From Clostridia bacterium (GTDB taxonomy: Bacteria > Bacillota > Clostridia > UMGS1883 > UMGS1540): a stretch of 64,000 nucleotides of DNA. Positions 1,890-46,546 of the stretch are shown here, in pieces (position 1 is the stretch's first letter; each line of letters begins with the position of its first letter). Position numbers and translations under genes: made by a program. The notes below the pieces were generated by a model. It saw only the letters and a list, made by a program, of their open reading frames with translations, searched no databases and was not told the origin of the DNA. Location of the stretch: the NCBI GenBank assembly GCA_045590195.1, contig JAZNQN010000044.1, positions 19,186 through 83,185 on the forward strand, written 5' to 3'.

Positions 1890-1894
1890 CACAA

Positions 1895-1932
1895 ATGGCA
1901 CGGACATAAAAAAATCCGTGCCATAGCTTTTG
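1895..1932 (+). terminator. Rho-independent terminator after the integrase
   Basis: Hairpin ATGGCACGGA...TCCGTGCCAT (10-bp stem) followed by AGCTTTTGG. Confidence 0.5.
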
Positions 1933-1999
1933 GTGTATTAAATTTTGATACGCCTTAAACAAAGAAAAAGACTTTGTCCCACAGTTGAAGATGAAAAAA

Positions 2000-2009
2000 T
2001 GTGGTCAAA
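2000..2009. repeat. TGTGGTCAAA motif, copy 1 of 3. The other copies are in the palindrome at 2201-2231.
   Basis: Exact 10-mer shared with 2204-2213 and, inverted, with 2219-2228. It sits between the integrase and the tRNA 3' end. Confidence 0.5.
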
Positions 2010-2033
2010 CTCGTTTTTTTGACATTTTTTTAG

Positions 2034-2073
2034 ACAAATCAAAAACCTCAGAAACCGCTTGGTTACTGAGGTT
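2034..2073 (-). terminator. Terminator of tRNA-Pro, read on the minus strand
   Basis: Hairpin AACCTCAG...CTGAGGTT lies directly 3' of the tRNA. On the minus strand it is followed by TTTTGATTTG. Confidence 0.5.
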
Positions 2074-2078
2074 TAAGG

Positions 2079-2155
<77 letters not shown>

Positions 2156-2200
2156 ATATAAAATATTTGGTTTTTTCTATATTCCCGTATCTGTGGGATA

Positions 2201-2231
2201 ACATGTGGTCAAAACTTATTTGACCACATGT
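2201..2231. repeat. Perfect palindrome ACATGTGGTCAAA-ACTTA-TTTGACCACATGT (13-bp arms). It carries two inverted copies of the TGTGGTCAAA motif.
   Basis: The inverted repeat was read directly. It lies about 50 nt upstream of the tRNA-Pro 5' end. Confidence 0.6.
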
Positions 2232-2317
2232 ATTTTGTTTTTTTAGTCACCGTAAAGTGGCATTGTTAAAAGGTTTGCGGGAGTTCGGCTGATTACTAAT
2301 GAATTGAATAGTACCGT

Positions 2318-2357
2318 GTCCCGAACGATGCGCGCTACCAAACTGCGCTACACCCCG
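2318..2357 (-). repeat. Partial copy of the tRNA-Pro 5' half, from the anticodon stem to the 5' end. It is not a complete tRNA.
   Basis: 38 of 40 nt match tRNA positions 2116-2155. No T-arm or acceptor 3' strand is found downstream. Confidence 0.7.
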
Positions 2358-2443
2358 TAACAACCTAAATTATTATAGCACAGAGAATACATAAAGTCAA
2401 ATATTTTTTTAAAGGTGCAACAATTTGTTGCACCTTTAATCAG

Positions 2444-4204
2444 TTATTCCGCAATCATATATTCGCCAATAAACAATATTTCTTCGTTTGTATTATCACG
2501 AATTACAAAAGTAAATGGTTTATCAAATTTTACTTCGATTGGCTCTGTTGGCGCAGAGGCAGCACCTGCCATCATTATTGCAGTTACAGCTGCAGCTTCA
2601 GTTCCTTTTTCGTCAACATTTATATACGTTTTATGAAGTATTTTATCTATGTACATATTAAACTCGTCTTTTTTATCAAACATCTTTTCAAATTCAGCCT
2701 CAAAGGCATCAAAGGCCTTAATTATACCGGCATTTTTCAAAATATCGTTAAGCTCTATTGATGTTTCGATTTTGAATTTCGGCACATAAAGATGAATTCT
2801 TTGACCTTTCATTCTGCCAAGACCAATAATATTTTCCAGTTCAGCTACCCTATTCTCATAATCTGTCATCATTATATACATACTTATATTTACATTATCA
2901 CGATGAAAATCGGCCACAGAGCCATCATCATTTAAAGTGTGAGTAGTACTCTCATAAGGTAACTCTATTACAGTTGTTTTATCATCAGCAAAATACATAA
3001 AATTAGCTGTGTTTTGCATAAATTCAGCTTTTGAAACTGTTCCGTCGAAATTATAAAAATTATCTTTAGAGGTTAATTCTTCTTCAAATTCATTATTCCA
3101 GTTTCCGCTGAAATATACCGCATTTATAAGTGCGGCCCAAAAATCAGCGCTATTTATAATTTCAGGAATTTTTTCGTTTGTTTTATCCGAAACCCAGTTA
3201 TTTATTGTTTTAACAGCATTTTTTCTGTCAACCTCTTTTGCCTCAGCACCATAATAGGAATACACTGTGTCTTTATATGTTCTTGAAAAATTTTTGGTGC
3301 TTTCATCCTTATTAAGCCAAATAGAATTTGCAATACTAAGCTTAACAGCTTTTGCCTCTAAATAGCTTTCAATTAAAGACTTTGCAGTTTCATTATACTG
3401 AGCTATATCATAAATTTCGGCAACTTCGCTTATTTCTTTATAAGTTTCGCCCTCTGCCCCGTTTGCTGCAAGCGCAAGAGCCATTTTAATTGAAAGCGGC
3501 GAAAACATATAGTTACTATTTTTCGGCATACCGCTATTTAAATCATCTGCAAAATAACTTTTGGCAGGTGTACCGCCAAATAGTATTCCTTCAAAATCAT
3601 TTTGTGTGTAAAGTCCCTTATCAATTAGCTTTTTATAAAGCATTTGTCCGTCAGCACATTTTGATGTAAGAGCGCTGCGGCAAAGCCTTGTTACATCACT
3701 TCTTAAAAGACTGTAATTTCCTTCAACAACGCTTTTGGTAAAATTATTGTTTATTACATCTGCAGCTTTTCCAATTTTAAGAGCGTTTTCAATTGTAACT
3801 TCAGAATATCCCATAACAGTCAATAAAATTTTTAAAAACTCTTTTCCCGTAACAGTTCTTTGCGGCTGAAAAGTAGTAGCTGATGTACCGTCAATATAGC
3901 CTGCTATGTAAAATTTTTCTATAACATCGGCCGCCCAGTGGCCTTTTACATCTTCAAACGGGAAATCGGCCATAGCTATGTCACTAAATGCTACTCCTGT
4001 TGTGCGCCAGATGAAAGTTAGCGCTTCTGCACGAGTTACCTCTCTCTCCAGTTCATAACCAATATCTGTACCCTTTAAAATGCCAAGTATTGCCATACCT
4101 TCTGCACCGGTATCAATAGGTATTTCTTCCCTTGGTAAGATTGCTGCCGAAGCAGATACGAAAAGCATTAAGGCAGCTAACAATAAAGCAAATATTTTTT
4201 TCAT
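2444..4204 (-). CDS. Secreted serpin (serine protease inhibitor) with N-terminal SLH cell-wall anchoring domains
   Basis: There is a signal peptide (MKKIFALLLAALMLFVSASA). SLH-like repeats match the pattern F.DV..HWA...I..G...GY..G..F.P. The serpin core carries the motif FSPLSIKMALALAANGA, the hinge EKGTEAAAVTA and the C-terminal signature KPFTFVIRD...ILFIGEY. The RBS is AAGGAGG. Confidence 0.75.
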   Translation of the reverse strand: MKKIFALLLAALMLFVSASAAILPREEIPIDTGAEGMAILGILKGTDIGYELEREVTRAEALTFIWRTTGVAFSDIAMADFPFEDVKGHWAADVIEKFYIAGYIDGTSATTFQPQRTVTGKEFLKILLTVMGYSEVTIENALKIGKAADVINNNFTKSVVEGNYSLLRSDVTRLCRSALTSKCADGQMLYKKLIDKGLYTQNDFEGILFGGTPAKSYFADDLNSGMPKNSNYMFSPLSIKMALALAANGAEGETYKEISEVAEIYDIAQYNETAKSLIESYLEAKAVKLSIANSIWLNKDESTKNFSRTYKDTVYSYYGAEAKEVDRKNAVKTINNWVSDKTNEKIPEIINSADFWAALINAVYFSGNWNNEFEEELTSKDNFYNFDGTVSKAEFMQNTANFMYFADDKTTVIELPYESTTHTLNDDGSVADFHRDNVNISMYIMMTDYENRVAELENIIGLGRMKGQRIHLYVPKFKIETSIELNDILKNAGIIKAFDAFEAEFEKMFDKKDEFNMYIDKILHKTYINVDEKGTEAAAVTAIMMAGAASAPTEPIEVKFDKPFTFVIRDNTNEEILFIGEYMIAE

Positions 4205-22130: not shown

Positions 22131-22330
22131 TAAGTTCCCTGCTGTGTGTCGGGAGACGGAGCAATAATTTTTTCCGATGCTATTTTAAACGGGAGATTAA
22201 ATAAATACAATTGGTGTGTAAGGCCCCCCGCTTTGCGGTTTGAGGGTAACCCGTAGATTGTAATGATAATCACCCACCTGACTTTTCAGGTTAAAATTTA
22301 TCCGTTTATCGCCACTTGCGGGGCTAAATA

Positions 22331-33987: not shown

Positions 33988-35277
33988 TTAGAACAATATT
34001 ATCAAAAACTGTGACACAAGCACAACTGCAATAAGTGCAATAGGATAAGTTGCCGCATAAGCTGATGCAACATCTTCAGTTCCTGAAACATTTATAAGTG
34101 TTCCAAGGGCCGGAGTTGATGTCATACCACCGCAAATTGAGCCAAGAGCATTGAGAAGATTAAGCTTTAGTACATATCTTGCAAAAAGATATCCAAGTAT
34201 CATTGGCAAAATTGTCATAACAGCGCCATATACAAAGTAAACCGGCTGGAAATTCTCAACAAATTTTGCTCCGCCTGCAACACCTGCACCGATTAAGAAA
34301 AGCATAAGGCCAAGCTCGCGGAAAACTTTAAGAGTTGGCTGTGGAGGCATAATGCTTACCATACCAACCTTTCCGAAGTGACCAAAAACAAGTGCCGCAA
34401 GAAGGCATCCGCCCGTTGTTGTAAGCGAAAAAGTTGTTCCCGAAAGGCCACTTGAAGAAAGCGGAATTTTAACCATTCCAATAATAATACCAATAACTGC
34501 CGCAATTGCGAAAGCGCATATACCAAATGAATCAAGCTCTAAAAGATTTTTGGAAACCTCTTTTTTCTCAGCTTTTTCAGCGGCAACAAGCTTTTCTCTT
34601 TCCTTTGCCATATCAGCGTTAACAATCTTTGGAACAAGCTGAACAAAAAGCACAACGCCGATTACACCAAAAATATATGCAATACCATTACCAACAGCAA
34701 CTATATCTTCATACATTTCTCCAACAGTTGCTTTTGCGGCTGAAAATGCCGGTGTTGAAGTAAGTGCGCCTGAGAGAAGCCCTGCAACCATAGCAGTAAA
34801 CTTTTCTGTGTTGGTTTCTCCAAGTGCTCTGCCAATGAGAATACAAATTACAGCCGAAATTCCCCCTGCAATTATAATTATAAGGCCAAGCATAACATAA
34901 GATTTAAAATTCTTTTTCATATTGCTGAAAAATTTTGGTCCGGCAATAAATCCAACGGATGTTACAAAAAGAATAAGGCCTATATTTTCAACAATTTTAA
35001 GTGCATCTTTTGTAAAATCGCCAAGCTGTGCCTGCAGAGTTTTATAAAAAAGGCAACCAAAAACCAATGCAGCAATAAATACGCCTGCAGTACCCAGCGA
35101 TACACCTTTTATTGTTATACGGCCGAGAAGGTAGCCTGCTGCTGAAATAATAAGTACTGAAAAAACTAGAAATGTAATTCCTGTTATGGGGATAACTCCA
35201 CCAAATAAACTCATTTTTAAAGACCTCTTTTCAAGTAAAATACACACAAATGCTATAATGAATCTGTACCGATTCAT
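33988..35277 (-). CDS. Two-repeat polytopic permease, AAE/YidE-like (Asp-Al_Ex-type repeats) but without TrkA-C domains. It may be a C4-dicarboxylate (succinate) transporter.
   Basis: About 11 transmembrane segments in two homologous halves separated by a short charged loop. It sits 30 nt downstream of the fumarate-reductase genes in the same operon direction. Confidence 0.4.
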   Translation of the reverse strand: MNRYRFIIAFVCILLEKRSLKMSLFGGVIPITGITFLVFSVLIISAAGYLLGRITIKGVSLGTAGVFIAALVFGCLFYKTLQAQLGDFTKDALKIVENIGLILFVTSVGFIAGPKFFSNMKKNFKSYVMLGLIIIIAGGISAVICILIGRALGETNTEKFTAMVAGLLSGALTSTPAFSAAKATVGEMYEDIVAVGNGIAYIFGVIGVVLFVQLVPKIVNADMAKEREKLVAAEKAEKKEVSKNLLELDSFGICAFAIAAVIGIIIGMVKIPLSSSGLSGTTFSLTTTGGCLLAALVFGHFGKVGMVSIMPPQPTLKVFRELGLMLFLIGAGVAGGAKFVENFQPVYFVYGAVMTILPMILGYLFARYVLKLNLLNALGSICGGMTSTPALGTLINVSGTEDVASAYAATYPIALIAVVLVSQFLIILF

Positions 35278-35307
35278 TATAGCATAACTTCAATTATTTT
35301 ACAAGTA

Positions 35308-36915
35308 TCAAATACCACTTTTCTGACCTGTGTAGTTTGGAAGAAGTTTAGGAGAAACCATATCGCCTGCAATGCCCGCCGCTTCTCTTTCAGCTTCAAA
35401 CGCAGCAATATGCTGGAGTGTAAGCTTGCCAACTTTAACATTTTTGCATTTAGCCGCCGCATTTTGACCTGCGTTTCTGCCAAATACAATAATATCTAAA
35501 AGTGAGTTACCCATAAGGCGGTTTCTGCCGTGAATTCCGCCAACAGCTTCGCCTGCAACATAAAGGTTTTCTACATTTGTTGTAGAACCATCAACATTTA
35601 TGTCAAGACCACCATTCTGATAGTGAAGTGTTGGGTAAACCAAAATTGGCTCCTTGCGGATATCAATTCCGTACTGACCAAACATTCTCATCATAGCAGG
35701 AATTCTTTTTTCAATTGTTCCCTCTCCACCTATTTTTTCAATCATAGGAGTATCAAGCCAAACACCAAGGCCGTTTCCTGTTTCAACGCCGTTGCCTCTG
35801 TCATTACATTCTCTGATAATAGAAGCCGCCGCAACGTCACGTGTTTCGAGAGGATGCATAAACACTTCGCCTTTTGAGTTTATAAGTTTGGCACCAAGTG
35901 AACGAACTTTTTCAGTAACAAGTGCACCGAAAATCTGCTGAGGATATGCAGCACCGGTTGGGTGATACTGCAAAGTTTCAGCATAAAGAAGCTTAGCCCC
36001 TACTCTGTAACCTAAAACAAGACCATCGGCAGTTGCGCCATAGTGATTCGATGTTGGGAAACCCTGATAATGCATTCTTCCTGCACCACCTGTTGCAATT
36101 ATGACAGTTTTAGCACGTGCAACCATAAGTTTTTCAGTTTCCATATTAAGGAGCACCGCACCTGCCGCGTTTCCGTTTTCATCAAGAATAATTTCGATTG
36201 CAGCTGTAAAATCAACAACAGGAATCTGTCTGTTTAAAACTTCATCTCGGAGTGTACGCATAATTTCAGCACCTGAATAGTCACGTGCAGCATGCATTCT
36301 CTTTCTTGATGTACCACCACCGTGAGTTGTAATCATTGTGCCATCTTCAGCTTTATCAAACTCAACGCCAAGGTTTGAAAGCCACCAAATAGCCTCAGGT
36401 GCATCGCAAACAAGTTTTGATAAAAGCTCGCGTTTAGCTGCAAAATGTCCGCCGCCAAAAGCATCAACAAAGTGAATTGCAGGGGAATCGTTTGGTTTGT
36501 CAGCCGCCTGAATACCACCTTCTGCCATCATTGTGTTGGCATCGCCAATACGAAGCTTTGTTACAATCATAACATCAGCCCCTGCCTCGTGAGCTTCGAT
36601 TGCGGCAGAAGAACCCGCTCCACCACCGCCAATTACAAGAACATCTACATCGTAGTCGGGTGCATCAAGGTTTACGTCTTCTGCTTTAATACGGCTTTTT
36701 GCCTCTAAAATTTCACAAAGCTCTTTTGGAACACACTGGCCTTTGTTAGGACCTATTTTAAGCTCAGAAAATTCGTCTTTTTTATAATCGGGATGATATG
36801 CCGCAAGCAAATCTTCTTTCTGTTTTGCAGTCATTCTGTCGGGCTCGTATGCAATATTTTTATCTCTCGCCGCCTCAACAGCTTTTATTGATTTTGTTAA
36901 TTCTTCTGAATACAT
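35308..36915 (-). CDS. Fumarate reductase/succinate dehydrogenase flavoprotein-family subunit with an N-terminal extension of about 90 aa
   Basis: It has an FAD dinucleotide fold (VLVIGGGGAGSSAAIEA), THGGG, the active-site HPTG and a C-terminal NSLLD...FGR. No membrane-anchor genes are nearby. Confidence 0.75.
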   Translation of the reverse strand: MYSEELTKSIKAVEAARDKNIAYEPDRMTAKQKEDLLAAYHPDYKKDEFSELKIGPNKGQCVPKELCEILEAKSRIKAEDVNLDAPDYDVDVLVIGGGGAGSSAAIEAHEAGADVMIVTKLRIGDANTMMAEGGIQAADKPNDSPAIHFVDAFGGGHFAAKRELLSKLVCDAPEAIWWLSNLGVEFDKAEDGTMITTHGGGTSRKRMHAARDYSGAEIMRTLRDEVLNRQIPVVDFTAAIEIILDENGNAAGAVLLNMETEKLMVARAKTVIIATGGAGRMHYQGFPTSNHYGATADGLVLGYRVGAKLLYAETLQYHPTGAAYPQQIFGALVTEKVRSLGAKLINSKGEVFMHPLETRDVAAASIIRECNDRGNGVETGNGLGVWLDTPMIEKIGGEGTIEKRIPAMMRMFGQYGIDIRKEPILVYPTLHYQNGGLDINVDGSTTNVENLYVAGEAVGGIHGRNRLMGNSLLDIIVFGRNAGQNAAAKCKNVKVGKLTLQHIAAFEAEREAAGIAGDMVSPKLLPNYTGQKSGI

Positions 36916-36927
36916 ATTGCGCCCTCC

Positions 36928-37602
36928 TTACTTTTCAATATCACGGTTATTATAAAGTTCTTTAATCTCATCAATTGGCTTTTGCATTAGAGCTTCAATA
37001 AGGTCATTGAAAGTACCATCTTTAATTTCTTTAACCCTTTCATCAAGATGGCCACAACCAGGAGCTAAATATTTACCGTTAAGTCTTCTTGCAAGCATTG
37101 CAACCTGTGGATGAGAAATACCTGCAGGACATCTTGAAGAACAAACGCCGCACATTACGCAGTCAAAAGATTCTTCAGCACATTTTTCATACTCAGCACG
37201 CTGTGCATAAGCAATATACTGCATTACATTAAGCTTCTGAGTACAAGCTTTTGTACAAGCATTACAGCCGATGCAGGAATAAATTTCAGGATAAAGCTGC
37301 ATCATAATCTGCTCAGTAGGTTTTACTTTTTCAATATCATAAATTTCTTTAACAAGCGGGAAGAATGGCAATGTAGCAATGTACATCTTATCTTCAACCT
37401 TTGTCTGACATGCAAGACAAGCTTTAAGTTCTCTGTCGCCCTCTATTCTGTAAATTGTGGCACATGCACCGCAAAAACCATTTCGGCATCCGCAACCACG
37501 TTTAAGCTGATAGCCTGCATATTCCATAGCACGCATAATTGTCATGCTGGCAGGTACTTCATATTTTTTACCGAACAAAAATATATTTACCATTTTTTCC
37601 AT
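36928..37602 (-). CDS. Fumarate reductase/succinate dehydrogenase iron-sulfur subunit-like protein
   Basis: There are an N-terminal [2Fe-2S]-like Cys cluster (CGCRNGFCGAC) and two 4Fe-4S/3Fe-4S motifs (CIGCNACTKAC, CVMCGVCSSRCP). The start was moved to the ATG at 37602 (MEKMVNIF), which has a GGAGA RBS. Confidence 0.7.
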   Translation of the reverse strand: MEKMVNIFLFGKKYEVPASMTIMRAMEYAGYQLKRGCGCRNGFCGACATIYRIEGDRELKACLACQTKVEDKMYIATLPFFPLVKEIYDIEKVKPTEQIMMQLYPEIYSCIGCNACTKACTQKLNVMQYIAYAQRAEYEKCAEESFDCVMCGVCSSRCPAGISHPQVAMLARRLNGKYLAPGCGHLDERVKEIKDGTFNDLIEALMQKPIDEIKELYNNRDIEK

Positions 37603-37621
37603 CAGTAGTATCTCCTTTTTC

Positions 37622-38452
37622 TTAGTATTCGTCAGGCAGCTCGTCAAGCTGGTCACACCTGAAAACCGGGCCGTCTTTACATACATATTTAGAACCAATG
37701 TTGCATCTGCCGCATTTACCAACGCCGCACTTCATTTTAAGTTCCATAGTAGTATAAATCTGAGTTTTTTCAAAGCCAAGTTCCTGAAGGCCCTGAAGGG
37801 TAAATTTAATCATAATAGGCGGACCACAGATTATTGCTGTTTTATTCGTGTCAAACCCGAGTTCCTTTACATAGTTTGGAACAAAGCCAACATGGCCATC
37901 CCATCCATCCTGAGGGTTATCAATTGTAAGATGAACATTTATTCCTTCATCCTTACACCATTCGTCGATAATTTCTTTATAATCAACAAGGTCGTCCATA
38001 CTTCTTGAGCCGTAAACTATATCAATTTTACCATAGCGGTCACGATAGTGACGGCAGTAGTTGATAACTGAACGAAGCGGTGCAAGGCCGATACCGCCGG
38101 CAATAAAGAGCATATCTTTGCCTGCAAATTCGGTGTCAACAGGGAAAGGATTTCCGTAAGGGCCACGAATTGTAATTTGCTGGCCTACTTCTGCCTGATG
38201 AAGCCACTCGGTAACGCAGCCGCACTTTTTAATGGAAAACTCCATATATTCAGTATTTGTTGGAGAAGAAGTAATTGAAAACATAGCCTCTCCCACTCCG
38301 GGAATTGAAAGCATTGCGCATTGACCCGGTTTATGGTCGAATGCTTTTTTGCCGTCGGGTGTTAAAACGCGGAAGGTTTTAACATCGGGGGTATCAATTC
38401 TTACATCACAAATTGTACCAATTTTTGGAATCAATGGATCTTGATTATTCAT
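37622..38452 (-). CDS. FlxA-like NAD(P)H:FAD oxidoreductase subunit, AsrB/hydrogenase-gamma/PyrK-like, with a C-terminal [2Fe-2S] site
   Basis: It has an FNR-like FAD/NAD-binding fold and a C-terminal CGVGKCGRC...C motif. The start was moved to the ATG at 38452 (MNNQDP), which has a GGAGG RBS. Confidence 0.65.
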   Translation of the reverse strand: MNNQDPLIPKIGTICDVRIDTPDVKTFRVLTPDGKKAFDHKPGQCAMLSIPGVGEAMFSITSSPTNTEYMEFSIKKCGCVTEWLHQAEVGQQITIRGPYGNPFPVDTEFAGKDMLFIAGGIGLAPLRSVINYCRHYRDRYGKIDIVYGSRSMDDLVDYKEIIDEWCKDEGINVHLTIDNPQDGWDGHVGFVPNYVKELGFDTNKTAIICGPPIMIKFTLQGLQELGFEKTQIYTTMELKMKCGVGKCGRCNIGSKYVCKDGPVFRCDQLDELPDEY

Positions 38453-39452
38453 TGTCTGCACCTCCAAGTTCTTTCATAACCTTTACAATATTCATTGAAA
38501 TAGGACACTTTGAAAGGCATCTGCCACAACCAACACATCCGAATATTCCATCGTTATTTTCAGGGAAGTATACAAGTTTGTGCATAAATCTCTGACGGAA
38601 ACGTTCTTTCTGAGAATTACGGGAGTTGCCGTGAGCCATTTTAGTAAAATCGGAATACATACACGAATCCCAGCAACGAAAACGTTGAACACCATTTCCT
38701 GTGTTAAAATCTTTAATGTCATAGCACTGACAGGTTGGGCATACAAAAGTACAGGTTCCACAGCCAAGGCAGCTTTCAGAAAGTTCTTCCCATTTTGGGC
38801 TTTCAAAATACTTTTCTGTTTTACCTCCACCAAAAGCATCAGTTTTTAAATTTTTAAGTGGAAGTTTTTCAATGTAAGTGCGAATTTTTGCTTTTTCTTC
38901 ATCTGCGGCTACAGTATCGCACTCCTGGCCAATCCCTTCAAGAAGAGCAGTTCCTTTTTCAGTTTTTGCGTCGATATAAACCACATCATCAACAATTGTG
39001 CATTCAACATCTCCACCGGGTGCAGAAGCATCAATACCAAAAGCAGCACAAAAACAAGTTTCTTCAGGGCGCGAGCAAGCAACAGTTATTATAGTTGCTC
39101 CCTCTCTTCTTTTCTGATAGAATGTGTCAACAGGTTCTGAGAGAAAAACTCTGTCAAGAATTTCAAAGCTTTTAAGATCGCAGGCGCGAACACCAAAAAT
39201 CGCAAAATTACCAATATCTTCACGAATATCGATAACTTCTATATTTTTGCCTTCTGTTTTAAAGTGCATCATATTTTCAACCTGAGGAAAGAAAAAGTCT
39301 TTCGCGCTCCTGGTTGTGTTAAGTTTTTTGGAATATTCTATTCCTTCTTCCCATTTTTTAAATGAAGCACCTTCTTTTCCGTCAGCCGGGAGATAAAGTG
39401 GCATTTTATCGGCAACGGCCTTGAAAAAATCGCAAATGTTAATTTTACGCAT
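38445..39452 (-). CDS. FlxB-like iron-sulfur protein (AsrA/sulfhydrogenase-beta-like)
   Basis: 4Fe-4S motifs (CLGCGTCTFVCPTC and CVGCGRCLSKCP). The start was moved to the ATG at 39452 (MRKINI), which has an AAAGGAG RBS. Confidence 0.6.
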   Translation of the reverse strand: MRKINICDFFKAVADKMPLYLPADGKEGASFKKWEEGIEYSKKLNTTRSAKDFFFPQVENMMHFKTEGKNIEVIDIREDIGNFAIFGVRACDLKSFEILDRVFLSEPVDTFYQKRREGATIITVACSRPEETCFCAAFGIDASAPGGDVECTIVDDVVYIDAKTEKGTALLEGIGQECDTVAADEEKAKIRTYIEKLPLKNLKTDAFGGGKTEKYFESPKWEELSESCLGCGTCTFVCPTCQCYDIKDFNTGNGVQRFRCWDSCMYSDFTKMAHGNSRNSQKERFRQRFMHKLVYFPENNDGIFGCVGCGRCLSKCPISMNIVKVMKELGGADNE

Positions 39453-40437
39453 TTTCGCCATCTCCTTTCTCCACAGCCTCGGAAGGCTCTAAATCTTCTG
39501 TAGTGTAGTTTACAAGCGGAGCACGAAGGCCTACTTCTTCCCCTGCCTGATACTCACCATAGAAAGAGTTTATATCTTTTATAAACTTACGGTTTAAAAG
39601 ATGAAGTGGAATGTTTTGCGGACAAACTCTTGAACATTCGCCGCAATCTGTACATCTTCCGGCAACGTGAAAAGCTCTTATAATGTGAAACATTTTTTCT
39701 TCAAAGCTATCTGCTGCGGCTTTGTTTTCCACGCCTGATTTAGGATTGCCAAATACGCACTGTTCACAAGTACAAGCGGGACAGACATCGCGGCAGGCAT
39801 TACATCTTATACATCTTGAAAGCTCGCCCTGCCAGAAAGCAAATCTTTCATCGGCAGACATTTTTTCAAGGCGCTTAACTTCATCAAAGCGGTTAGAATC
39901 AATAATTTCGCCTTCGTCGCCAATAAGTTCATCGTATGCAACATGCTTGCGGCTTTTGCAAGAGATGCATCTTTCAGCTAAAACATCAGCTTTATTAAAT
40001 ACTTTTTCATCGCCATAAATTGATTTTACCAAAATTTCATCGCCGTTTTCCAAAATTTCAGAAACAGCAGAAATTTCAGCTTTAATTTTTGAAACATCAG
40101 TCATTCCATCGCAGGGAATTCCAACGGCATAAACTTTTTCGCGGTCTATGCGGTGTTCAGTTAAAAGCTGATTAAAACTGTATGTGTCACATGGTTTCAA
40201 GAAAACCAGCACTTTTCCATCTTTCTGGCATTCTTTTACTAGATATTTTGAAAAGTTTGCACCACAAAAAGCATTGTAAACAAAATCTTTTTTAAGAGAT
40301 TCGGCATCTTTAAACACACCGGGGGTTACATCGTATGAAAACTCGCCCTCTTTCCAGCCTAAAACTCTGTCAACCTTTCCGCTTTCAAGGAGGTTTAATG
40401 CTTTATCTATAAGAATATCACGATTTATTGTTTGCAT
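39445..40437 (-). CDS. FlxC-like iron-sulfur protein (FrhB/FdhB-family-like fold plus ferredoxin motifs)
   Basis: FrhB-like VLVFLKPCDTYS and two CxxCxxCxxxCP-type motifs. Confidence 0.55.
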   Translation of the reverse strand: MQTINRDILIDKALNLLESGKVDRVLGWKEGEFSYDVTPGVFKDAESLKKDFVYNAFCGANFSKYLVKECQKDGKVLVFLKPCDTYSFNQLLTEHRIDREKVYAVGIPCDGMTDVSKIKAEISAVSEILENGDEILVKSIYGDEKVFNKADVLAERCISCKSRKHVAYDELIGDEGEIIDSNRFDEVKRLEKMSADERFAFWQGELSRCIRCNACRDVCPACTCEQCVFGNPKSGVENKAAADSFEEKMFHIIRAFHVAGRCTDCGECSRVCPQNIPLHLLNRKFIKDINSFYGEYQAGEEVGLRAPLVNYTTEDLEPSEAVEKGDGENA

Positions 40438-40859
40438 CTTAAATCCTCCAATCTTTTGTTTTCGCCAAGAGCAGCAACTGCTTCGGCAAATTCATTCATT
40501 GTTTGCGCAAATTTTGCGCCTTCAGCCGCAGAAACCCATTCAACACGGGTTCTTTCTTTTTCAATACCGAGAAAATCGAGCATTGAGAAAAGAAGCGACA
40601 TTCTTCTTCTTGTATAGTAGTTACCAGAAGTATAATGGCAGTCGCCAGGGTGGCAACCACAGATTATAACCCCGTCTGCTCCACGCTGAAATGCTCTTAA
40701 AATAAACATTGGGTTTACCCTACAAGAGCATGGAACACGAATTATTTTAACTTCGGCAGGGTAACTGAGTCGGTTATTACCTGCAAGGTCGGCACCGGCA
40801 TAAGAACACCAGTTACAGCAAAATGCCACTATTAAAGGTTTTTTCTCTTCTATTTGCAT
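40425..40859 (-). CDS. MvhD/FlxD-like [2Fe-2S] electron-transfer subunit
   Basis: MvhD signature FCCNWCSYAGADLAG...IRVPCSCRV. Confidence 0.75.
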   Translation of the reverse strand: MQIEEKKPLIVAFCCNWCSYAGADLAGNNRLSYPAEVKIIRVPCSCRVNPMFILRAFQRGADGVIICGCHPGDCHYTSGNYYTRRRMSLLFSMLDFLGIEKERTRVEWVSAAEGAKFAQTMNEFAEAVAALGENKRLEDLRCKQ

Positions 40860-42844
40860 ATTGCATCCACCTCCGCTAAAATTTGTGCATTTTTAAAGCC
40901 TTTTAAATCCATTGCACCTGATGGACAGGCAACTGTACAAGCACCGCAGCCCTGACAAACAGCTTCATTAACCTGAGCTACGCGGCGCATTTTTGTTGTT
41001 CTGTTTGGCATACGGAACTCTTTAACTACATAAGTTATTGCACCATATGGGCAAACTCTTTCGCAACTACTGCATCCGTTACACATCATTTCGTCTGATG
41101 CGGCAATACAAGGATTACCAAGAAGTTTATCTTTGCATAAAAGGCCGATAACCTTTGAAGCCGCCGCTCCCGCCTGGGAAACAGTTTCAGGAATATCTTT
41201 CGGGCCTTGACAAGCACCTGACAAAAATACGCCTGCGGTTGGGCTTTCAACCGGACGAAGCTTTGGATGAGCCTCGGTAAAGAAATCGTTTGTATCCATA
41301 CTTGCAGTGAGCATTGTTGCAAGAGGACGAGCTGATTTATCAGGCTCGATTGCGGCTGCTAAAACAACCAAATCTGCATCAATGTTAATCTGTTTATTTG
41401 AAATTAAATCGCTTGCACGCACTTTAAGCTTATCGCCTTCAGGCATAATTTTGCCAACCATACCTTTAATGTAGTGAACACCAAATTCCTCGGTTGCTCT
41501 TCTGTAAAATTCGTCAAAGTTTTTACCGGGAGTTCTGACATCGATGTAGAATACTGTTACGTCAGTATCCGGATATTTATCACGAGTGAGCATTGCGTGT
41601 TTCGCTGTGTACATACAACAAATTTTAGAACAGTATTCCTTACCTTTTTCATTGCATGCATCGCATCTTGAACCTACGCACTGAACGAAAACGATTTTTT
41701 CAGGATGTTTTCCGTCTGAAGGGCGTAAGAGTTTACCTGCTGTTGGGCCTGCCGCATTGGTAAGACGCTCAAATTCGAGAGAAGTTATAACATCTTTCGA
41801 CTGGTTATAAGCATACTCATCAAATTTTTCCATACTGATAGGATTAAAGCCTGTTGCAACAACAATTGCACCATATTTTTCTTCTATAATTTCATCCTGT
41901 TGCTTATAATTGATAGCTCCTGCTGCACAAACCTTTTCACAAAGGCCGCACTTGCCATTTTTAAGCATATTACAGTAATCAGCATCAATTGTTGCAACCT
42001 TTGGAACTGCCTGAGCAAAAGGAATATAAACCGCTCTTCTCATATCCATTCCAAGGTTAAATTCATTAGGAACTTTCTTTTGAGGACATTTTTCTGTACA
42101 AAGGCCGCAACCTGTACATTTAGTTTCGTCAACAAATCTTGCTTTTTTCTTAATTTTTACATCAAAATTTCCTACAAAACCGGAAACTGCTTCAACTTCG
42201 CTATAGGAAAAAATTCTTATTTTATCGTTCTGTGCAACATCAACCATTTTTGGAGTTAAAATACAAGCCGCACAGTCAAGTGTTGGGAAGGTTTTATCAA
42301 TCTGCGCCATCTTGCCGCCGATTGTAGGATTTTTTTCAACTATATCTACCGGGAAACCTGCATCGGCAATATCAAGAGCTGTTTGAATACCTGCAATACC
42401 GCCACCGATAACCAAAGCACGCTTTGTAACAGGGCTTTCGCCAGGTGTAAGCGGAGCGTTAAGGTTAACCTTTGCAACAGCCGCTTTGCCCAAAATAATT
42501 GCTTTTTCAGTTCCTGTAGGGATATCTTTATGAACCCATGAGCACTGCTCACGAATGTTTGCAATTTCAACCATATAAGGGTTAATCCCTGCACTTTCAG
42601 CGGTTTTTCTGAAAGTATTCTCGTGCATACGGGGTGAACAGGAACAAATAACTATACCGGTAAGATTATGCTCTTTAATAGCATCTTTAATCATTTCCTG
42701 TCCCGCTTGGGAACACATATACTGATAGTTAGTGGAGAAAACAACACCAGGCTCTTTTTTCAAGGCTTCGCTAACTGCTTCAACATCAACAGTTGCCGCA
42801 ATATTGCTTCCGCACCAACATACGAATACACCAATTCTTTGCAT
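40850..42844 (-). CDS. hdrA: Heterodisulfide reductase subunit A-like flavoprotein
   Basis: It has an HdrA N-terminal Cys motif (GVFVCWCGSNIA), FAD binding (ALVIGGGIAGIQTALDIA), inserted ferredoxin motifs and a C-terminal 2x[4Fe-4S]. Confidence 0.8.
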   Translation of the reverse strand: MQRIGVFVCWCGSNIAATVDVEAVSEALKKEPGVVFSTNYQYMCSQAGQEMIKDAIKEHNLTGIVICSCSPRMHENTFRKTAESAGINPYMVEIANIREQCSWVHKDIPTGTEKAIILGKAAVAKVNLNAPLTPGESPVTKRALVIGGGIAGIQTALDIADAGFPVDIVEKNPTIGGKMAQIDKTFPTLDCAACILTPKMVDVAQNDKIRIFSYSEVEAVSGFVGNFDVKIKKKARFVDETKCTGCGLCTEKCPQKKVPNEFNLGMDMRRAVYIPFAQAVPKVATIDADYCNMLKNGKCGLCEKVCAAGAINYKQQDEIIEEKYGAIVVATGFNPISMEKFDEYAYNQSKDVITSLEFERLTNAAGPTAGKLLRPSDGKHPEKIVFVQCVGSRCDACNEKGKEYCSKICCMYTAKHAMLTRDKYPDTDVTVFYIDVRTPGKNFDEFYRRATEEFGVHYIKGMVGKIMPEGDKLKVRASDLISNKQINIDADLVVLAAAIEPDKSARPLATMLTASMDTNDFFTEAHPKLRPVESPTAGVFLSGACQGPKDIPETVSQAGAAASKVIGLLCKDKLLGNPCIAASDEMMCNGCSSCERVCPYGAITYVVKEFRMPNRTTKMRRVAQVNEAVCQGCGACTVACPSGAMDLKGFKNAQILAEVDAICK

Positions 42845-42858
42845 TTGCTTTCTCCTTT

Positions 42859-43251
42859 CTATTTACTATATTTTCTCATTGCACTTACAATTGCCTGTTG
42901 TGGCAACTGTTCATCTAAAAGTGAAGGTATTGCATCAGCTTTAAGATGATTTTCGCCCTGCTGACGTACTTTTAAAAGCCTTACTGCTTCAATAAGTTTT
43001 GCCGGCTCTACGCCTCTGGGACAACGCTCAACACAGGCAAAACAAGAAAGACATTTGAAAATTGAAGGCGACTCCATAAGTTTATCAACATCACCGTTTT
43101 CAACCATATAAACAAACTGATGAGGATGATATTCCATTTCATCATAAGAAGGACATGTACCTGTGCATTTGCCGCATTTCATACATTTTTTAGGATTAAC
43201 ACCGCTGATGCGCAAAATTTCGTTTGAAAGCTCTGTTTTATTCATTTGCAC
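42859..43251 (-). CDS. hdrC: Heterodisulfide reductase subunit C-like protein (2x[4Fe-4S])
   Basis: CMKCGKCTGTCP and CLSCFACVERCP. Confidence 0.7.
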   Translation of the reverse strand: MQMNKTELSNEILRISGVNPKKCMKCGKCTGTCPSYDEMEYHPHQFVYMVENGDVDKLMESPSIFKCLSCFACVERCPRGVEPAKLIEAVRLLKVRQQGENHLKADAIPSLLDEQLPQQAIVSAMRKYSK

Positions 43252-44032
43252 AGCCCTCCTTTACGCCAAGCGCCTGTGCTAAAAGCTCGGTAAAATATTT
43301 AATTTCTATACCGTCGGCGTGTTTTTCAAGATTATATTTGCAAAGTGGGCAAGCTGTTACTATCATATCTGCACCCATTTTTTTGGCACTTTCCAAAATA
43401 GCAATACTCTTCTTCTTTGCACTTTCACTATCTTCAAGAGCTATATATCCGCCGCAGCATTCGTTTCTGTATGGCGAAACTATTGCTTCCGCACCCATAG
43501 CTTTTACAAGATTTTCAAGAATCTGCGGATTTTCGCTGTCGTCCATCTGCATAACTTTACCAGGACGAAGCAAAAGACAACCATAATATGGAGCAATTTT
43601 TTTACCCTCAAGAGGATTTGTAACTTTTTTGGCAATTTCTTCAAAGCCAATTTCATCTCTCAAAAGCTCAAGATAATGAATAACCTCTGCATCTCCCTCA
43701 TAAGGCGTATCAAGATTCATATAGTTATTTGCTTTAAAAGCAAAATCGCTATCGTTATTAAACTGATAATTTGTTTGTTTTATTACATTATGGCAGGCAG
43801 CACAAACTGTTACAAGCTTCTGACCTTTTTCTTTTGCCTCTACAAGGGCACGAATTGAGGAAAGCTTTGTTGCAATTTCATCCTTCGAAGTTGTAAAAAC
43901 TCCGCCGCAGCACTGCCAGTTATTTATTTCTTCCAGATTAACCCCTAATGCCGCCGCACTTTCTCTTGCGTATTTATCAAGTTCTTTTGCTTTGGTTTTA
44001 AGAGTACAACCGGGATAATATGAAAAATTCAT
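43238..44032 (-). CDS. hdrB: Heterodisulfide reductase subunit B-like protein with two CCG domains
   Basis: The CCG motifs are WQCCGGVF and NECCGGY, and it starts YYPGC. The start was moved to the ATG at 44032 (MNFSYYPGC), which has an AAGGGAG RBS. Confidence 0.8.
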   Translation of the reverse strand: MNFSYYPGCTLKTKAKELDKYARESAAALGVNLEEINNWQCCGGVFTTSKDEIATKLSSIRALVEAKEKGQKLVTVCAACHNVIKQTNYQFNNDSDFAFKANNYMNLDTPYEGDAEVIHYLELLRDEIGFEEIAKKVTNPLEGKKIAPYYGCLLLRPGKVMQMDDSENPQILENLVKAMGAEAIVSPYRNECCGGYIALEDSESAKKKSIAILESAKKMGADMIVTACPLCKYNLEKHADGIEIKYFTELLAQALGVKEGCANE

Positions 44033-44054
44033 ACCTAAACTCCCTTCTGCAAAA

Positions 44055-45431
44055 TTATACCATCTGTTCAGGATGGAACACTTCGTCAAATTTTTCTTCG
44101 GTTAAAAAGCCAAGCTCGATACAAGCCTCTTTAAGAGAAATATTGTCTTTATAAGCTTTTTTAGCTGTTTTAGCCGCATTTTCATAACCGATATAAGGGT
44201 TAAGCGCAGTAACAAGCATAAGTGAATTATGAAGATTATGATGCATTTTTTCGCGGTTTGCCTTAATGCCTACTGCACAGTTTTTGTTAAATGAAACAAT
44301 GGCTTCTGCCATAAGACGTGCCGACTGCAAAAAGTTATATATGCATACAGGCATAAATACATTAAGTTCAAAGTTACCCTGTGAAGCTGCCATAGAAACA
44401 GCAACATCATTACCCATTACCTGAACGGCAACCATTGTTACCGCTTCACACTGAGTTGGGTTAACTTTACCCGGCATAATTGATGAGCCCGGTTCATTTT
44501 CAGGGATGAAAATTTCTCCAAGGCCATCACGAGGACCGCTTGCAAGCCAACGGATATCGTTTGCTATTTTCATCATATCGCAGGCAAGGGCTTTAATTGC
44601 ACCATGTGCAAAAACAAGCTCGTCTTTTGAAGTTAATGCGTGAAATTTATTCTCAGCAGTTACAAATGGTTTTCCTGTTATTTTCGAAACCTCTGCCGCA
44701 ACGCCTTCTGAAAAACCTTTTGGAGCATTAAGTCCTGTTCCAACTGCAGTTCCGCCAAGTGCAAGTTCACAAAGCGGCTTTACGCTTTGCTTCAAAAGCT
44801 CTACATCTTTCTGGAGGCTTGATCTCCAGCCGCTGATTTCCTGGCTGAATTTTATTGGAGTTGCATCCTGAAGATGTGTTCTTCCGCTTTTTACTATATC
44901 TTCGTTTTCTTTTTCAAGGCGTGAAAAAGTATCGATAAGAGTTTGGACAGCAGGAATAAGTTTATCTTCTATCATCAAAACTGCGGAAATATGCATAGCT
45001 GTAGGGAAAGTATCGTTTGACGACTGGCTCATATTAACATCATCATTAGGATGAAGAATACTTTTGCCCGCAATCTGATTTCCACGGTTTGCAATTACTT
45101 CGTTTGCATTCATATTCGACTGAGTGCCGGAGCCCGTTTGCCATACAACAAGAGGAAAATGGCTATTAAGCTTGCCGCTTATAACCTCATCGCAAGCACT
45201 GGAAATTGCCGAAAGTTTTTCTTCAGTCATTTTTTCGGGTTTCAAAGCGTGATTTGCGATTGCTGCAGCTTTTTTCAAAATGCCGAATGCATGTGTAATT
45301 TCACGTGGCATTGTTTCAATATTTACACCGATTTCAAAATTTTCGTGACTTCTCTGGGTTTGAGCCGCCCACAACCTGTCGGCAGGAACTTTAACCTCTC
45401 CCATCGAGTCGTGTTCAATACGATAATCCAT
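44055..45431 (-). CDS. fumC: Class II fumarate hydratase
   Basis: [16 protein letters not shown] (the FumC-type SS-loop) and full-length similarity. Confidence 0.85.
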
Positions 45432-45449
45432 AACTACTCCTCTTTTCTT

Positions 45450-46406
45450 TTATATATCCATTTGTTTTATAAGTGATTTCAAAGTATCTGCGCTATGGTG
45501 AAGTGCGCGAACCTCTTCATCATTAAGAGGCAAAAGCATTTTTCCACAAGCGCCCTTGTTGTCAACAACATTGAGAAGGCTCAAAGAAACATCATCTATT
45601 CCATATTCGCCGTGAAGCATTGTTGAAACAGTCATAGTAGTATTTATACCGCCGAGAATACATTTACAAATGTGGCAAACAGATACTGAAACAGCGTAGA
45701 ATGTTGCACCTTTTCTTTCAATAACTCTTCCGCCTGATTTGCGAACATAATCCTCAACTTCATCAAAGTCTATACTTGGCAGCTTAAAGCCTTTCTGAGA
45801 AAAATCGCCTACTACCGAAGACTGACCTTCCTGAATAGGAATGTTAGATACATTTGCAATTGACCACGGAACAAAAGAAGAATCACCATGTTCACCAAGA
45901 ACATAGGCGTGAACATTTTTCTGGTTGATTGAGTAATACTCCGAAAGCCTTGCACGAAGGCGGGCGGTATCAAGAATAGTTCCCGAACCTATAATCTGAT
46001 TTTCAGGAAGCCCTGAACATTTAAAGAATGTGTAAGTTAAAATGTCAACAGGATTGCTCACTATAAGGTAAACTGCATTTGGTGCATAGCGAACAATTTC
46101 AGGAATAATCTGTTTAGTAATATTAACATTTGTCTGAGCAAGGTCAAGCCTTGACTGACCTGGCTTTCTTGCAATACCTGAAGTTACTATTACTATATTT
46201 GAGCCTACTGCATCCTGATATGAACCTGCGTAAACTGTTGCTGATGAGCAAAACGGTGTTCCCTGGCGAATGTCAAGTGCTTCGCCAAGTGCTTTTTCCT
46301 GATTAATATCAATAAGCACAATTTCAGATGCCAGCCCCATAACAGTTAAAGTATACGCAATTGTTGAGCCAACACTACCTGTTCCTATTATTGTAATTTT
46401 GTTCAT
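45450..46406 (-). CDS. mdh: LDH-type malate dehydrogenase. The substrate-specificity residue is Arg.
   Basis: It has a Rossmann N-terminus (IIGTGSVGST) and an IARKPGQSRLDL loop with Arg at the LDH Gln102-equivalent position. The fumC context supports the call. Confidence 0.7.
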   Translation of the reverse strand: MNKITIIGTGSVGSTIAYTLTVMGLASEIVLIDINQEKALGEALDIRQGTPFCSSATVYAGSYQDAVGSNIVIVTSGIARKPGQSRLDLAQTNVNITKQIIPEIVRYAPNAVYLIVSNPVDILTYTFFKCSGLPENQIIGSGTILDTARLRARLSEYYSINQKNVHAYVLGEHGDSSFVPWSIANVSNIPIQEGQSSVVGDFSQKGFKLPSIDFDEVEDYVRKSGGRVIERKGATFYAVSVSVCHICKCILGGINTTMTVSTMLHGEYGIDDVSLSLLNVVDNKGACGKMLLPLNDEEVRALHHSADTLKSLIKQMDI

Positions 46407-46482
46407 GGTATTCTTCCTTTCGTGTATGAAATATCGTTACAACCTCAATTGTAGCACACATTTAAATTAAAATCAATAGAAA

Positions 46483-46500
46483 TTGATAATTTTTTAACAA
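46483..46500. promoter_or_regulatory. Candidate Rex (redox-sensing repressor) operator, TTGATAA-N4-TTAACAA
   Basis: 17 of 18 positions match the Clostridial Rex consensus TTGTTAA-N4-TTAACAA. It lies 77-94 nt upstream of the mdh start. Confidence 0.4.
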
Positions 46501-46518
46501 TCTTTTTTAAAAAGCTAA

Positions 46519-46542
46519 CTCTATATTTAAATATAGAGTTTT
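46519..46542 (-). terminator. Palindrome/terminator downstream of the 480-aa hydrogenase-like gene
   Basis: Perfect inverted repeat AACTCTATATTT/AAATATAGAGTT. On the minus strand it is followed by GTTAGCTTTTT. Confidence 0.45.
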
Positions 46543-46546
46543 AGCA

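Follow-up and report, generated by a model that had tools for sequence, protein, structure and literature searches.

Where does a soluble fumarate reductase obtain its electrons when no membrane anchor is encoded beside it? The question is raised by a stretch of 64,000 nucleotides (nt) from the genome of a Clostridia bacterium (assembly GCA_045590195.1, contig JAZNQN010000044.1, positions 19,186 to 83,185), to which we refer as the window. Its minus strand carries, from 46406 to 35308, eleven tightly packed co-directional genes in the order mdh-fumC-hdrB-hdrC-hdrA-mvhD/flxD-flxC-flxB-flxA-frdB-frdA, with a permease gene after them. An earlier note on this DNA had listed these eleven products and had read them as a cytoplasmic system coupling the reduction of fumarate by NADH to the reduction of ferredoxin. 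Open reading frame (ORF) listing together with Pfam and NCBIfam profile scans recovered all eleven, in the order and on the strand that it gave, and every gene assignment that could be checked against a profile hidden Markov model held.

Our answer has two parts, which we hold with different assurance. It is very likely that the operon is the organism's soluble fumarate-reducing system and that it feeds succinate export. The fuller model, in which an Flx-Hdr-Frd fumarate reductase bifurcates the electrons of NADH between fumarate and ferredoxin, is in our judgment probable. The earlier note had presented both the composition and the bifurcation prediction as not met with before; both had already been published (PMC7282089; PMC6315080, PMC11636981, PMC13147460), and the architecture and the hypothesis are thus a rediscovery rather than a discovery.

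Conservation of the gene string

A scan that sampled one genome per species found a close relative of FrdA encoded in at least 588 species genomes, and the proteins of the window were placed on the best 80 of these loci. Upstream gene order was scored only in the 52 loci whose upstream flank was 9.7 kb or longer. This comparison of gene neighbourhoods, which the earlier note had named as a check, recovered the string in other species: the ten genes fumC-hdrB-hdrC-hdrA-mvhD-flxC-flxB-flxA-frdB-frdA lie in the same order and on the same strand in 50 of the 52, which places the arrangement far beyond chance. The ldh/mdh gene stands ahead of fumC in 46 of those 50 loci. Both of the remaining loci retain hdrB to frdA without fumC and begin at hdrB, so that hdrBCA-flxDCBA-frdBA emerges as the invariant core. 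Across the 80 best loci frdB adjoins frdA in 79, frdBA is linked to flx-hdr in every case, and the conserved string contains no gap large enough for an extra gene. An AAE permease homologue is found 3′ of frdA in 48 of the 74 loci that include downstream flank.

In the two exceptional loci (L029 and L063, positions 1..2800 of each), a gene for a GGDEF-type protein or an opposite-strand ArgC-like gene lies upstream of hdrB, and mdh and fumC must therefore be sited elsewhere or be absent there.

The hosts of the relatives are uncultured Oscillospiraceae, Acutalibacteraceae, Ruminococcus-like and Christensenellales-like bacteria of gut and rumen, with Yeguia and Congzhengia also represented; Yeguia hominis NSJ-40 is a cultured host. 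Among the matches listed, the nearest relatives of FrdA come from uncultured Oscillospiraceae and Clostridia metagenome-assembled genomes, at 86–91% identity; the exact sequence of FrdA itself gave no hit when looked up.

The genes are also packed as an operon would be. Calculated from the likeliest start codons rather than from the longest listed ORFs, all ten junctions are gaps of 12–22 nt or overlaps of 8–17 nt (Table 1), which bears out the tight packing described in the earlier note. For hdrB, flxA, and frdB, the most likely starts are the internal ATGs at 44032, 38452, and 37602. A promoter-like site 5′ of mdh suggests that this gene opens its own transcription unit. Rfam and tRNA scans of the window found no regulatory RNA near the operon.

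The subunits and their predicted cofactors

Conservation of cofactor and active-site residues was assessed in ortholog alignments of 46–80 sequences each, the window sequence included; nearly all Fe-S cysteines in these alignments are invariant. FrdA was further aligned to avian SdhA (1yq3_A), and residue equivalences were counted from that alignment. His254, Thr266/Glu267, Arg298, His365, and Arg409 of the avian enzyme correspond to H318 (the histidine of an HPTG motif), T334/E335, R359, H431, and R466 of FrdA, and all of these dicarboxylate-site residues are invariant among its relatives. The exception is avian His57, which carries the covalent FAD and is replaced by N127. Asparagine occupies this position in 79 of 80 sequences and also in the distant relatives P0121, P0122, P0129, and P0136. 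Typically, it is the enzymes that reduce fumarate, and not those that oxidize succinate, whose flavin is non-covalent. Together, N127 and the intact site residues therefore predict a dicarboxylate-reducing site with a non-covalent flavin, which would be expected to work like those of the SdhA/FrdA and TfrA types. We considered whether Ala216, which lies opposite the His of the avian “DRTGH” motif, marks a lost catalytic histidine, and rejected this because the catalytic His254 is matched by the conserved H318.

In other respects the flavoprotein is atypical. The best NCBIfam match of FrdA is TfrA (NF004900; 339 bits against a cut-off of 718, model positions 6–413 of 546), followed by SdhA models at 279 bits and NadB models at 265 bits, and it falls under every cut-off. 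A Pfam scan gave no match to the C-terminal helical domain PF02910/Succ_DH_flav_C in FrdA; alignments to SdhA/FrdA stop near chain residue 420–445 of ∼600, and ∼45 FrdA residues remain. The label “SdhA/FrdA-like” used in the earlier note thus stands for the fumarate site and fails for the C-terminal domain. At the other end of the chain, residues 1–88 form a highly conserved extension that is shared by relatives down to ∼40% identity. Neither tail (the N-terminal 89 and the C-terminal 55 residues) has a Pfam match at E <= 10. The N-terminal extension may be a docking element that substitutes for the C-terminal domain of SdhA, which FrdA does not have.

A search of 1.84 billion representative proteins defined the wider FrdA clade. 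P0121, a more distant full-length member, is 54% identical to FrdA, equal to it in length, and has the same N-terminal extension. P0122 (727 aa) is a natural fusion of FrdB and FrdA: residues 1–221 are 40% identical to full-length FrdB (E = 4e-57), and residues 229–727 are 56% identical to FrdA residues 27–525, with the extension following directly after the FrdB part. By this Rosetta-stone evidence FrdB and FrdA form one enzyme, although we note that P0122 is a single database entry and could be an artefact of assembly or gene calling.

In its layout, with a 2Fe-2S domain ahead of a helical-spacer dicluster domain, FrdB matches SdhB. Its proposed start, MEKMVNIF, agrees with the N terminus of the P0122 fusion. 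FrdB contains a Cx4Cx2C...C motif for the 2Fe-2S cluster and, C-terminal to it, two complete CxxCxxCxxxC(P) motifs, and fifteen cysteines are invariant among 75 orthologues. All four cysteines are present in the last cluster motif, CVMCGVCSSRCP, and the second dicluster site is therefore predicted to be 4Fe-4S rather than 3Fe-4S. FrdB would accordingly carry one 2Fe-2S and two cubane [4Fe-4S] clusters and no 3Fe-4S cluster. The earlier description of an “SdhB-like” subunit agrees with the domain layout, but the relationship is remote by score (TIGR00384, 33 bits against a cut-off of 88). Pfam and NCBIfam scans found no CCG domain in FrdB.

No gene resembling the SdhC/D or FrdC/D anchors lies in the operon or its flanks within the 64-kb window, as the earlier note had observed. 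FrdBA has no His for covalent FAD, no C-terminal helical domain, and no anchor gene in the locus, which places it outside the classical SdhAB/FrdAB family; missed model cut-offs and an FrdB that has no CCG domain likewise place it outside TfrAB.

The complete HdrB(CCG)-HdrC-HdrA set and the four Flx subunits named in the earlier note were confirmed by Pfam, NCBIfam, and Protein Data Bank (PDB) matches. HdrA aligns along its full length (residues 3–661) with Methanothermococcus HdrA (5odc_A, E = 4e-208), a bifurcating HdrA of the structurally solved Mvh/Fdh-Hdr complexes, and retains both ferredoxin-like domains. Its cysteines are 97–100% conserved, with the exception of C570 (45%). The HdrA2 model score of 789 bits lies below the cut-off of 1100 because the MvhD part of that model is a separate gene here: MvhD/FlxD matches the C-terminal MvhD segment, positions 643–774. 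HdrA is the predicted electron-bifurcating centre.

HdrB resembles methanogen HdrB (8rvv_B, E = 1e-29), and all ten of its CCG cysteines are invariant among 55 orthologues, which predicts two non-cubane [4Fe-4S] sites. Its best NCBIfam matches are SdhE of methylmenaquinol:fumarate reductase (MFR; 148 bits, cut-off 500) and HdrB (135 bits), both under cut-off; the equivalog cut-offs for HdrB and HdrC are built on methanogen proteins. The eight cysteines of HdrC are invariant among 56 orthologues. Consecutive segments of the TfrB model are matched by FrdB, in its N-terminal region (positions 18–98), HdrC (123–220), and HdrB (260–485). These segments, together with the SdhE match of HdrB, identify CCG (HdrB-type) and FrdAB-type modules as known partners.

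On the input side, FlxC resembles FdhB in its C-terminal part (9t1s_M and 7bkb_E, chains of Fdh-Hdr complexes, E ∼1e-23), and 16 of its 17 cysteines are 94–100% conserved. In Fdh-Hdr complexes, FdhB feeds MvhD. FlxB scores 152–172 bits with ShyB, HydB, and AsrA models and matches the β subunit of sulfhydrogenase I (9nez_B, E = 3e-43). FlxA scores 197–230 bits with AsrB and HydG-type models, has a C-terminal [2Fe-2S] site, and is the predicted NADH entry point. Taken together with the domains of FlxA, these likenesses trace a consistent route for electrons from NAD(P)H to HdrA.

Two enzymes at the head of the operon would supply the substrate. The first is a member of the lactate dehydrogenase (LDH) family that clears the NCBIfam L-LDH cut-offs and fails those for malate dehydrogenase (MDH). 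Its specificity loop, GIARKPGQSR, is of the Arg type reported in the earlier note: R80, at the position of LDH Gln102, is invariant in 46 of 46 orthologues, as is R86, and H173 of the catalytic motif GEHGDS is also invariant. A Q102R change converts LDH to MDH specificity. We predict that the enzyme is an MDH that reduces oxaloacetate to malate, a call that rests on one residue and the gene context, since the models favour L-LDH. FumC, by contrast, scores above the cut-off of its own model, as expected of the class II fumarase named earlier, and is predicted to convert malate to fumarate.

Proposed electron path and competing explanations

These assignments are consistent with a model in which the operon would encode a cytoplasmic branch from oxaloacetate through malate and fumarate to succinate, which would then be exported. 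At the fumarate step, a soluble two-subunit FrdBA with no quinol-binding anchor would draw its electrons from an NADH-oxidizing FlxABCD-HdrABC. NADH would hand its electrons to the FAD of FlxA. A relay of Fe-S clusters in FlxA, FlxB, and FlxC would carry them to FlxD (MvhD), whose [2Fe-2S] cluster would feed the FAD of HdrA, the site at which the pair would be split. The high-potential electron would travel by way of HdrC and the pair of non-cubane clusters in HdrB to FrdB, the non-covalent FAD of FrdA, and fumarate, and the low-potential electron would be driven uphill to ferredoxin (Fd). The net reaction would be 2 NADH + fumarate + 2 Fd(ox) -> 2 NAD+ + succinate + 2 Fd(red). We infer that the nine redox proteins would act as one complex, in which FrdB would dock on HdrB or HdrC.

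The standard potentials of NADH (−320 mV), fumarate (about +30 mV), and ferredoxin (about −400 to −500 mV) allow this coupling thermodynamically, and its logic would parallel that of Bcd-Etf. The genetic context is also in keeping with it: the Arg-type MDH and FumC lie upstream in 46–50 of 52 loci, and the AAE permease lies downstream.

Several points weigh against this account. HdrB retains a full disulfide-reductase-type site, for which a mere electron wire has no obvious use, and it is among the least conserved subunits, with a mean column identity of 64% compared to 84–89% for FrdA, HdrA, and MvhD. FlxA could be specific for NADH or for NADPH. The AlphaFold2 model of FrdA, built from a 24-sequence alignment of 84–91% identity, is poor (mean pLDDT 57.8, pTM 0.62). 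A PDB search with HdrA, FlxB, and FlxC as queries returned no structure of an Flx-Hdr complex, and, in line with the statement in the earlier note that no enzyme of this composition had been characterized, we found no purification, assay, or structure of any Flx-Hdr-Frd enzyme in the literature or the PDB. To our knowledge, bifurcation by FlxABCD-HdrABC itself rests on genetics and analogy.

The same components could be assembled into a simpler enzyme, a soluble NADH:fumarate reductase that does not bifurcate, with the Flx and Hdr subunits serving as a long Fe-S/flavin wire and no ferredoxin being reduced. Electron transfer from NADH to fumarate is strongly exergonic alone, no feature of the sequence proves bifurcation, and there is precedent in the soluble, multi-subunit, NADH-dependent and irreversible fumarate reductase of Hydrogenobacter thermophilus, as far as it is summarized in PMC13147460. 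However, the operon keeps MvhD and a complete, canonical HdrA, which would be costly for a simple wire, and it sits among ferredoxin-linked enzymes. We consider this explanation unlikely.

Less likely again is a two-step system in which electrons reach fumarate by way of thiols, the thiols that result being reoxidized by a Tfr-like fumarate-reducing activity. The ten invariant CCG cysteines of HdrB and the best match of FrdA to TfrA would both suit such a route, and the literature on the related Endoriftia cluster allows either a direct route or one by way of Fd(red) and a DsrC-like protein (PMC11636981). Against it, FrdB has no CCG domain and hence no evident thiol-oxidizing site, so that the roles of reductase and oxidase would both fall to HdrB, the sole CCG protein. 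Nor does the window's operon contain a gene for a thiol carrier or a DsrC-like protein. We regard the thiol route as quite improbable.

It is very improbable that the substrate of FrdA is not fumarate, with Flx-Hdr serving an L-aspartate oxidase-like activity or an enoate, urocanate, or acrylate-type reductase. FAD_binding_2 proteins that have no C-terminal domain do include urocanate and enoate reductases (PDB matches 6t85_A and the Fcc3 family), the NadB models score close to those of SdhA (265 vs 279 bits), and NadB also has no covalent histidine. However, the four His/Arg dicarboxylate residues of FrdA and the Thr/Glu pair are invariant, and an Fe-S subunit is adjacent in 79 of 80 loci and is sometimes fused to it; we know of no dedicated Fe-S subunit for NadB or urocanate reductase. 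The Arg-type MDH and the fumarase that head the operon also argue for fumarate, as does expression of the operon in the succinate producer Pseudoclostridium thermosuccinogenes (PMC7282089).

Reverse operation, in which succinate would be oxidized and Fd(red) would drive the reduction of NAD+ (confurcation), is in principle open to flavin-based bifurcating enzymes, which are reversible, but it is hardly credible here given the predicted non-covalent flavin at N127, which disfavours succinate oxidation, and the fermentative, reductive context (MDH, fumarase, exporter) in gut anaerobes.

Beyond the bifurcating Flx-Hdr-Frd model itself, we put forward a more specific version only tentatively, judging it possible but somewhat less probable than its negation. 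In this version, about eleven subunits would form a single cytoplasmic machine, the CCG clusters of HdrB would have no disulfide substrate and would serve FrdBA as a docking and relay site in the manner of type-E SdhE, and fumarate would be the direct bifurcation acceptor. In hundreds of Oscillospirales and Christensenellales species of gut and rumen, succinate would be formed mainly by this machine instead of a quinol:fumarate reductase, and the machine would provide extra Fd(red) for H2 formation or Rnf-linked energy conservation.

If bifurcation is correct, fumarate would be added to the small set of terminal acceptors of flavin-based electron bifurcation, which includes crotonyl-CoA, heterodisulfide, and pyruvate, and quinone-poor gut Clostridia could conserve energy in succinate fermentation without a respiratory chain. 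Each succinate would use three NADH (one at MDH and two at the complex) and return two Fd(red), so that models of rumen and colon fermentation would need altered redox and H2 balances. Structural work would also gain its first Flx-Hdr complex with a defined substrate. Since the operon is present in at least 588 species-level genomes, including that of the cultured Yeguia hominis, the hypothesis is directly testable. Concrete handles are provided by the FrdA extension and missing C-terminal domain, the Asn in place of the covalent His, the all-cubane FrdB, and the FrdB-FrdA fusion.

Flanking genes and known systems

Coordinates of the operon and of the features around it are given in Table 1.

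Table 1. Genes and signals of the operon, listed in order of transcription, followed by flanking and other features of the window
Feature	Position	Strand	Basis of assignment	Junction with next gene
Promoter-like site 5′ of mdh	46448..46476	-	TTGATT, 17 nt, TG-TACAAT; consensus match only	
ldh/mdh, LDH-family NAD-dependent 2-hydroxyacid dehydrogenase	45450..46406	-	Pfam Ldh_1_N + Ldh_1_C	gap 18 nt
fumC, class II fumarate hydratase	44055..45431	-	TIGR00979 715 bits (cut-off 665); Pfam Lyase_1, FumaraseC_C	gap 22 nt
hdrB, HdrB-like	43238..44032	-	PF02754 x2 (CCG); longest ORF to TTG 44089, likely start ATG 44032	overlap 8-14 nt
hdrC, HdrC-like, two [4Fe-4S] motifs	42859..43251	-	Fer4_17, Fer4_8; TIGR03290 70 bits, under cut-off	gap 14 nt
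hdrA, FAD and multi-[4Fe-4S] flavoprotein	40850..42844	-	NCBIfam HdrA2 789 bits, model positions 1-641	overlap 10 nt
mvhD/flxD, [2Fe-2S] adaptor	40425..40859	-	PF02662 FlpD 188 bits	overlap 13 nt
flxC, FlxC-like Fe-S protein	39445..40437	-	Fer4 dicluster	overlap 17 nt
flxB, FlxB-like Fe-S protein, AsrA/sulfhydrogenase beta family	38445..39461	-	Fer4_22 107 bits	overlap 8 nt
flxA, FNR-type NAD(P)H:FAD oxidoreductase	37622..38452	-	FAD_binding_6, NAD_binding_1, DHODB_Fe-S_bind; longest ORF to TTG 38467	gap 19 nt
frdB, Fe-S subunit	36928..37602	-	Fer2, Fer2_3, Fer4_8; longest ORF to TTG 37722	gap 12 nt
frdA, FrdA-like flavoprotein	35308..36915	-	FAD_binding_2 224 bits	
Promoter-like site	35304..35276	-	TTGTAA-17-TGCTATAAT; overlaps hairpin; pattern match only	
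15-bp perfect-looking hairpin	35250..35285	-	ATGCTATAATGAATC...GATTCATTATAGCAT; pattern match only	
Two-repeat AAE-family permease	33988..35214	-	PF06826 Asp-Al_Ex x2, 202 bits; TIGR01625 144 bits, above cut-off	
HydC/HydB/HydA	62121-57975	-	HydA passes NADH-dependent A6 [FeFe]-hydrogenase model	
NfnA/NfnB-like pair	57772-55489	-		
Second HydC/B/A set	55466-51412	-		
HydS-type sensory hydrogenase with PAS domain	50838-49156	-		
SpoIIE/PP2C phosphatase	49163-47991	-		
Monomeric group-B [FeFe] hydrogenase	47989-46547	-		
AT-rich inverted repeat	46500..46545	-	AACTCTATAT-TTAA-ATATAGAGTT plus T-run	
6S RNA gene	22133..22328	+	55.8 bits, above gathering score	
tRNA-Pro(CGG) gene	2079..2155	-		

The AAE permease family includes a succinate exporter (PMC9527358), and the permease downstream of frdA is a candidate for the same function. 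This part of the reading in the earlier note stands; its statement that the permease gene follows immediately probably does not. The likeliest start of the permease is ATG 35214, preceded by the ribosome-binding site AAGAGG, which would leave 93 nt between the two genes, with the hairpin and a promoter-like site in that interval; the listed ORF extends to ATG 35277, which falls inside the hairpin. The hairpin and promoter-like site may act as an attenuator, a partial terminator, or a promoter of the exporter's own. Next 3′ of the permease is enolase, and then a strong terminator. Enolase was rejected as part of the unit, since, in the comparison with the 80 loci, it adjoins the operon only in the window.

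The operon lies at the end of a “redox island” that occupies the minus strand from 62121 to 46547. Its NADH- and ferredoxin-linked enzymes (two HydABC sets, NfnAB, and a ferredoxin-type hydrogenase) could reoxidize the products of the operon. We considered the group-B hydrogenase as a member of the unit and rejected it: only ∼9 of 80 loci have it close to the operon, and its position varies among them; a hairpin and promoter-like site separate it from mdh. The AT-rich inverted repeat with its T-run lies directly 3′ of the stop codon of this hydrogenase and is a likely terminator, one that a GC-biased terminator scan missed. Elsewhere, the window contains genes for 6S RNA and tRNA-Pro(CGG), and positions 1..2000 have an unusually strong AT skew of 0.39. 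A 475-aa ORF at 462..1889 on the plus strand had no NCBIfam match at E <= 1e-30.

Among known systems, the Flx-Hdr part of the operon has its counterpart in FlxABCD-HdrABC of Desulfovibrio vulgaris, an NADH dehydrogenase/heterodisulfide reductase (Ramos et al. 2015, as cited in PMC7282089). The same seven subunit types are present in the window, as assigned here by domains and models, in the order hdrBCA-flxDCBA, which differs from that of D. vulgaris. The proposed high-potential acceptor in Desulfovibrio is DsrC; in the window, by contrast, FrdBA and thus fumarate are genetically attached, and there is no sulfate-reduction context.

Partnership between a CCG protein and SdhAB is found in the type-E succinate:quinone reductases and MFRs (SdhABE(F), MfrABE), where SdhE/MfrE fills the role. 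As in FrdB, the last cluster motif of type-E SdhB includes the fourth cysteine. Unlike the enzyme encoded in the window, the type-E enzymes are associated with the membrane or periplasm, are linked to quinones, possess a full-length SdhA, whose FAD is covalently bound, and have no HdrA or Flx module.

H. thermophilus FrdABCDE is a soluble five-subunit NADH-dependent fumarate reductase (Miura et al. 2008, as described in PMC13147460) and the sole biochemically characterized enzyme of this general logic that we found in the literature. It shares with the window a cytoplasmic, anchor-less, multi-subunit, and NADH-linked design and a catalytic subunit of the SdhA type. Its genes are reportedly dispersed in the genome. 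It functions in the reductive tricarboxylic acid (rTCA) cycle, and we found no report in the literature that it contains HdrA or bifurcates.

The thiol:fumarate reductase TfrAB of Methanothermobacter is related in sequence, TfrA being the best match of FrdA and TfrB in effect a fusion of FrdB-, HdrC-, and HdrB-like proteins. In the window, these three are separate proteins, and FrdA does not have the C-terminal third of the TfrA model. Tfr and Flx-Hdr have been brought together before: for tubeworm symbionts (Endoriftia) and Thioflavicoccus, a complex formed by tfrAB and flxABCD-hdrABC of an rTCA cluster was proposed, independently of the work on P. thermosuccinogenes, by Rubin-Blum et al. (2019; PMC6315080), and Mitchell et al. 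(2024) provided co-expression data for the symbiont cluster (PMC11636981). As for the window, simultaneous NADH-driven reduction of fumarate and ferredoxin has been proposed for this cluster (PMC6315080, PMC11636981, PMC13147460), and a 2026 survey still describes the Flx-Hdr/Tfr idea as “suggested” (PMC13147460). The contexts differ, the window pointing to succinate fermentation and the TfrAB and symbiont systems to methanogen anabolism or CO2 fixation. In Ruminococcus champanellensis, a 2024 preprint reported STRING links between HdrA, SdhA/FrdA, and an FlxA-type protein, which suggests that this species also carries the operon.

The closest parallel is the “succinate operon” of P. thermosuccinogenes, which is, like the host of the window, an anaerobic member of the Clostridia. 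By its published description, this operon comprises a fumarate hydratase (CDQ83_RS03365), Flx-Hdr (RS03360-30), a fumarate reductase (RS03325-20), and a putative transporter (RS03315), and it is transcribed and ∼4-fold up under CO2 limitation (PMC7282089; Koendjbiharie et al. 2020, BMC Microbiol). Compared with that description, the window has the same fumarase, seven Flx-Hdr genes, two fumarate reductase genes, and transporter. NADH-driven reduction of both fumarate and ferredoxin was proposed for P. thermosuccinogenes in a 2019 preprint by Koendjbiharie and van Kranenburg, as it is cited in PMC7282089. The window operon differs in having an Arg-type MDH of the LDH family as its first gene, and its host belongs to a mesophilic, gut-type lineage, whereas P. 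thermosuccinogenes is a thermophile. The wide distribution documented here further sets the window-type operon apart from the published example, as a common function of the gut rather than the curiosity of one thermophile, and the bifurcating Flx-Hdr-Frd proposal is still the best available explanation for it.

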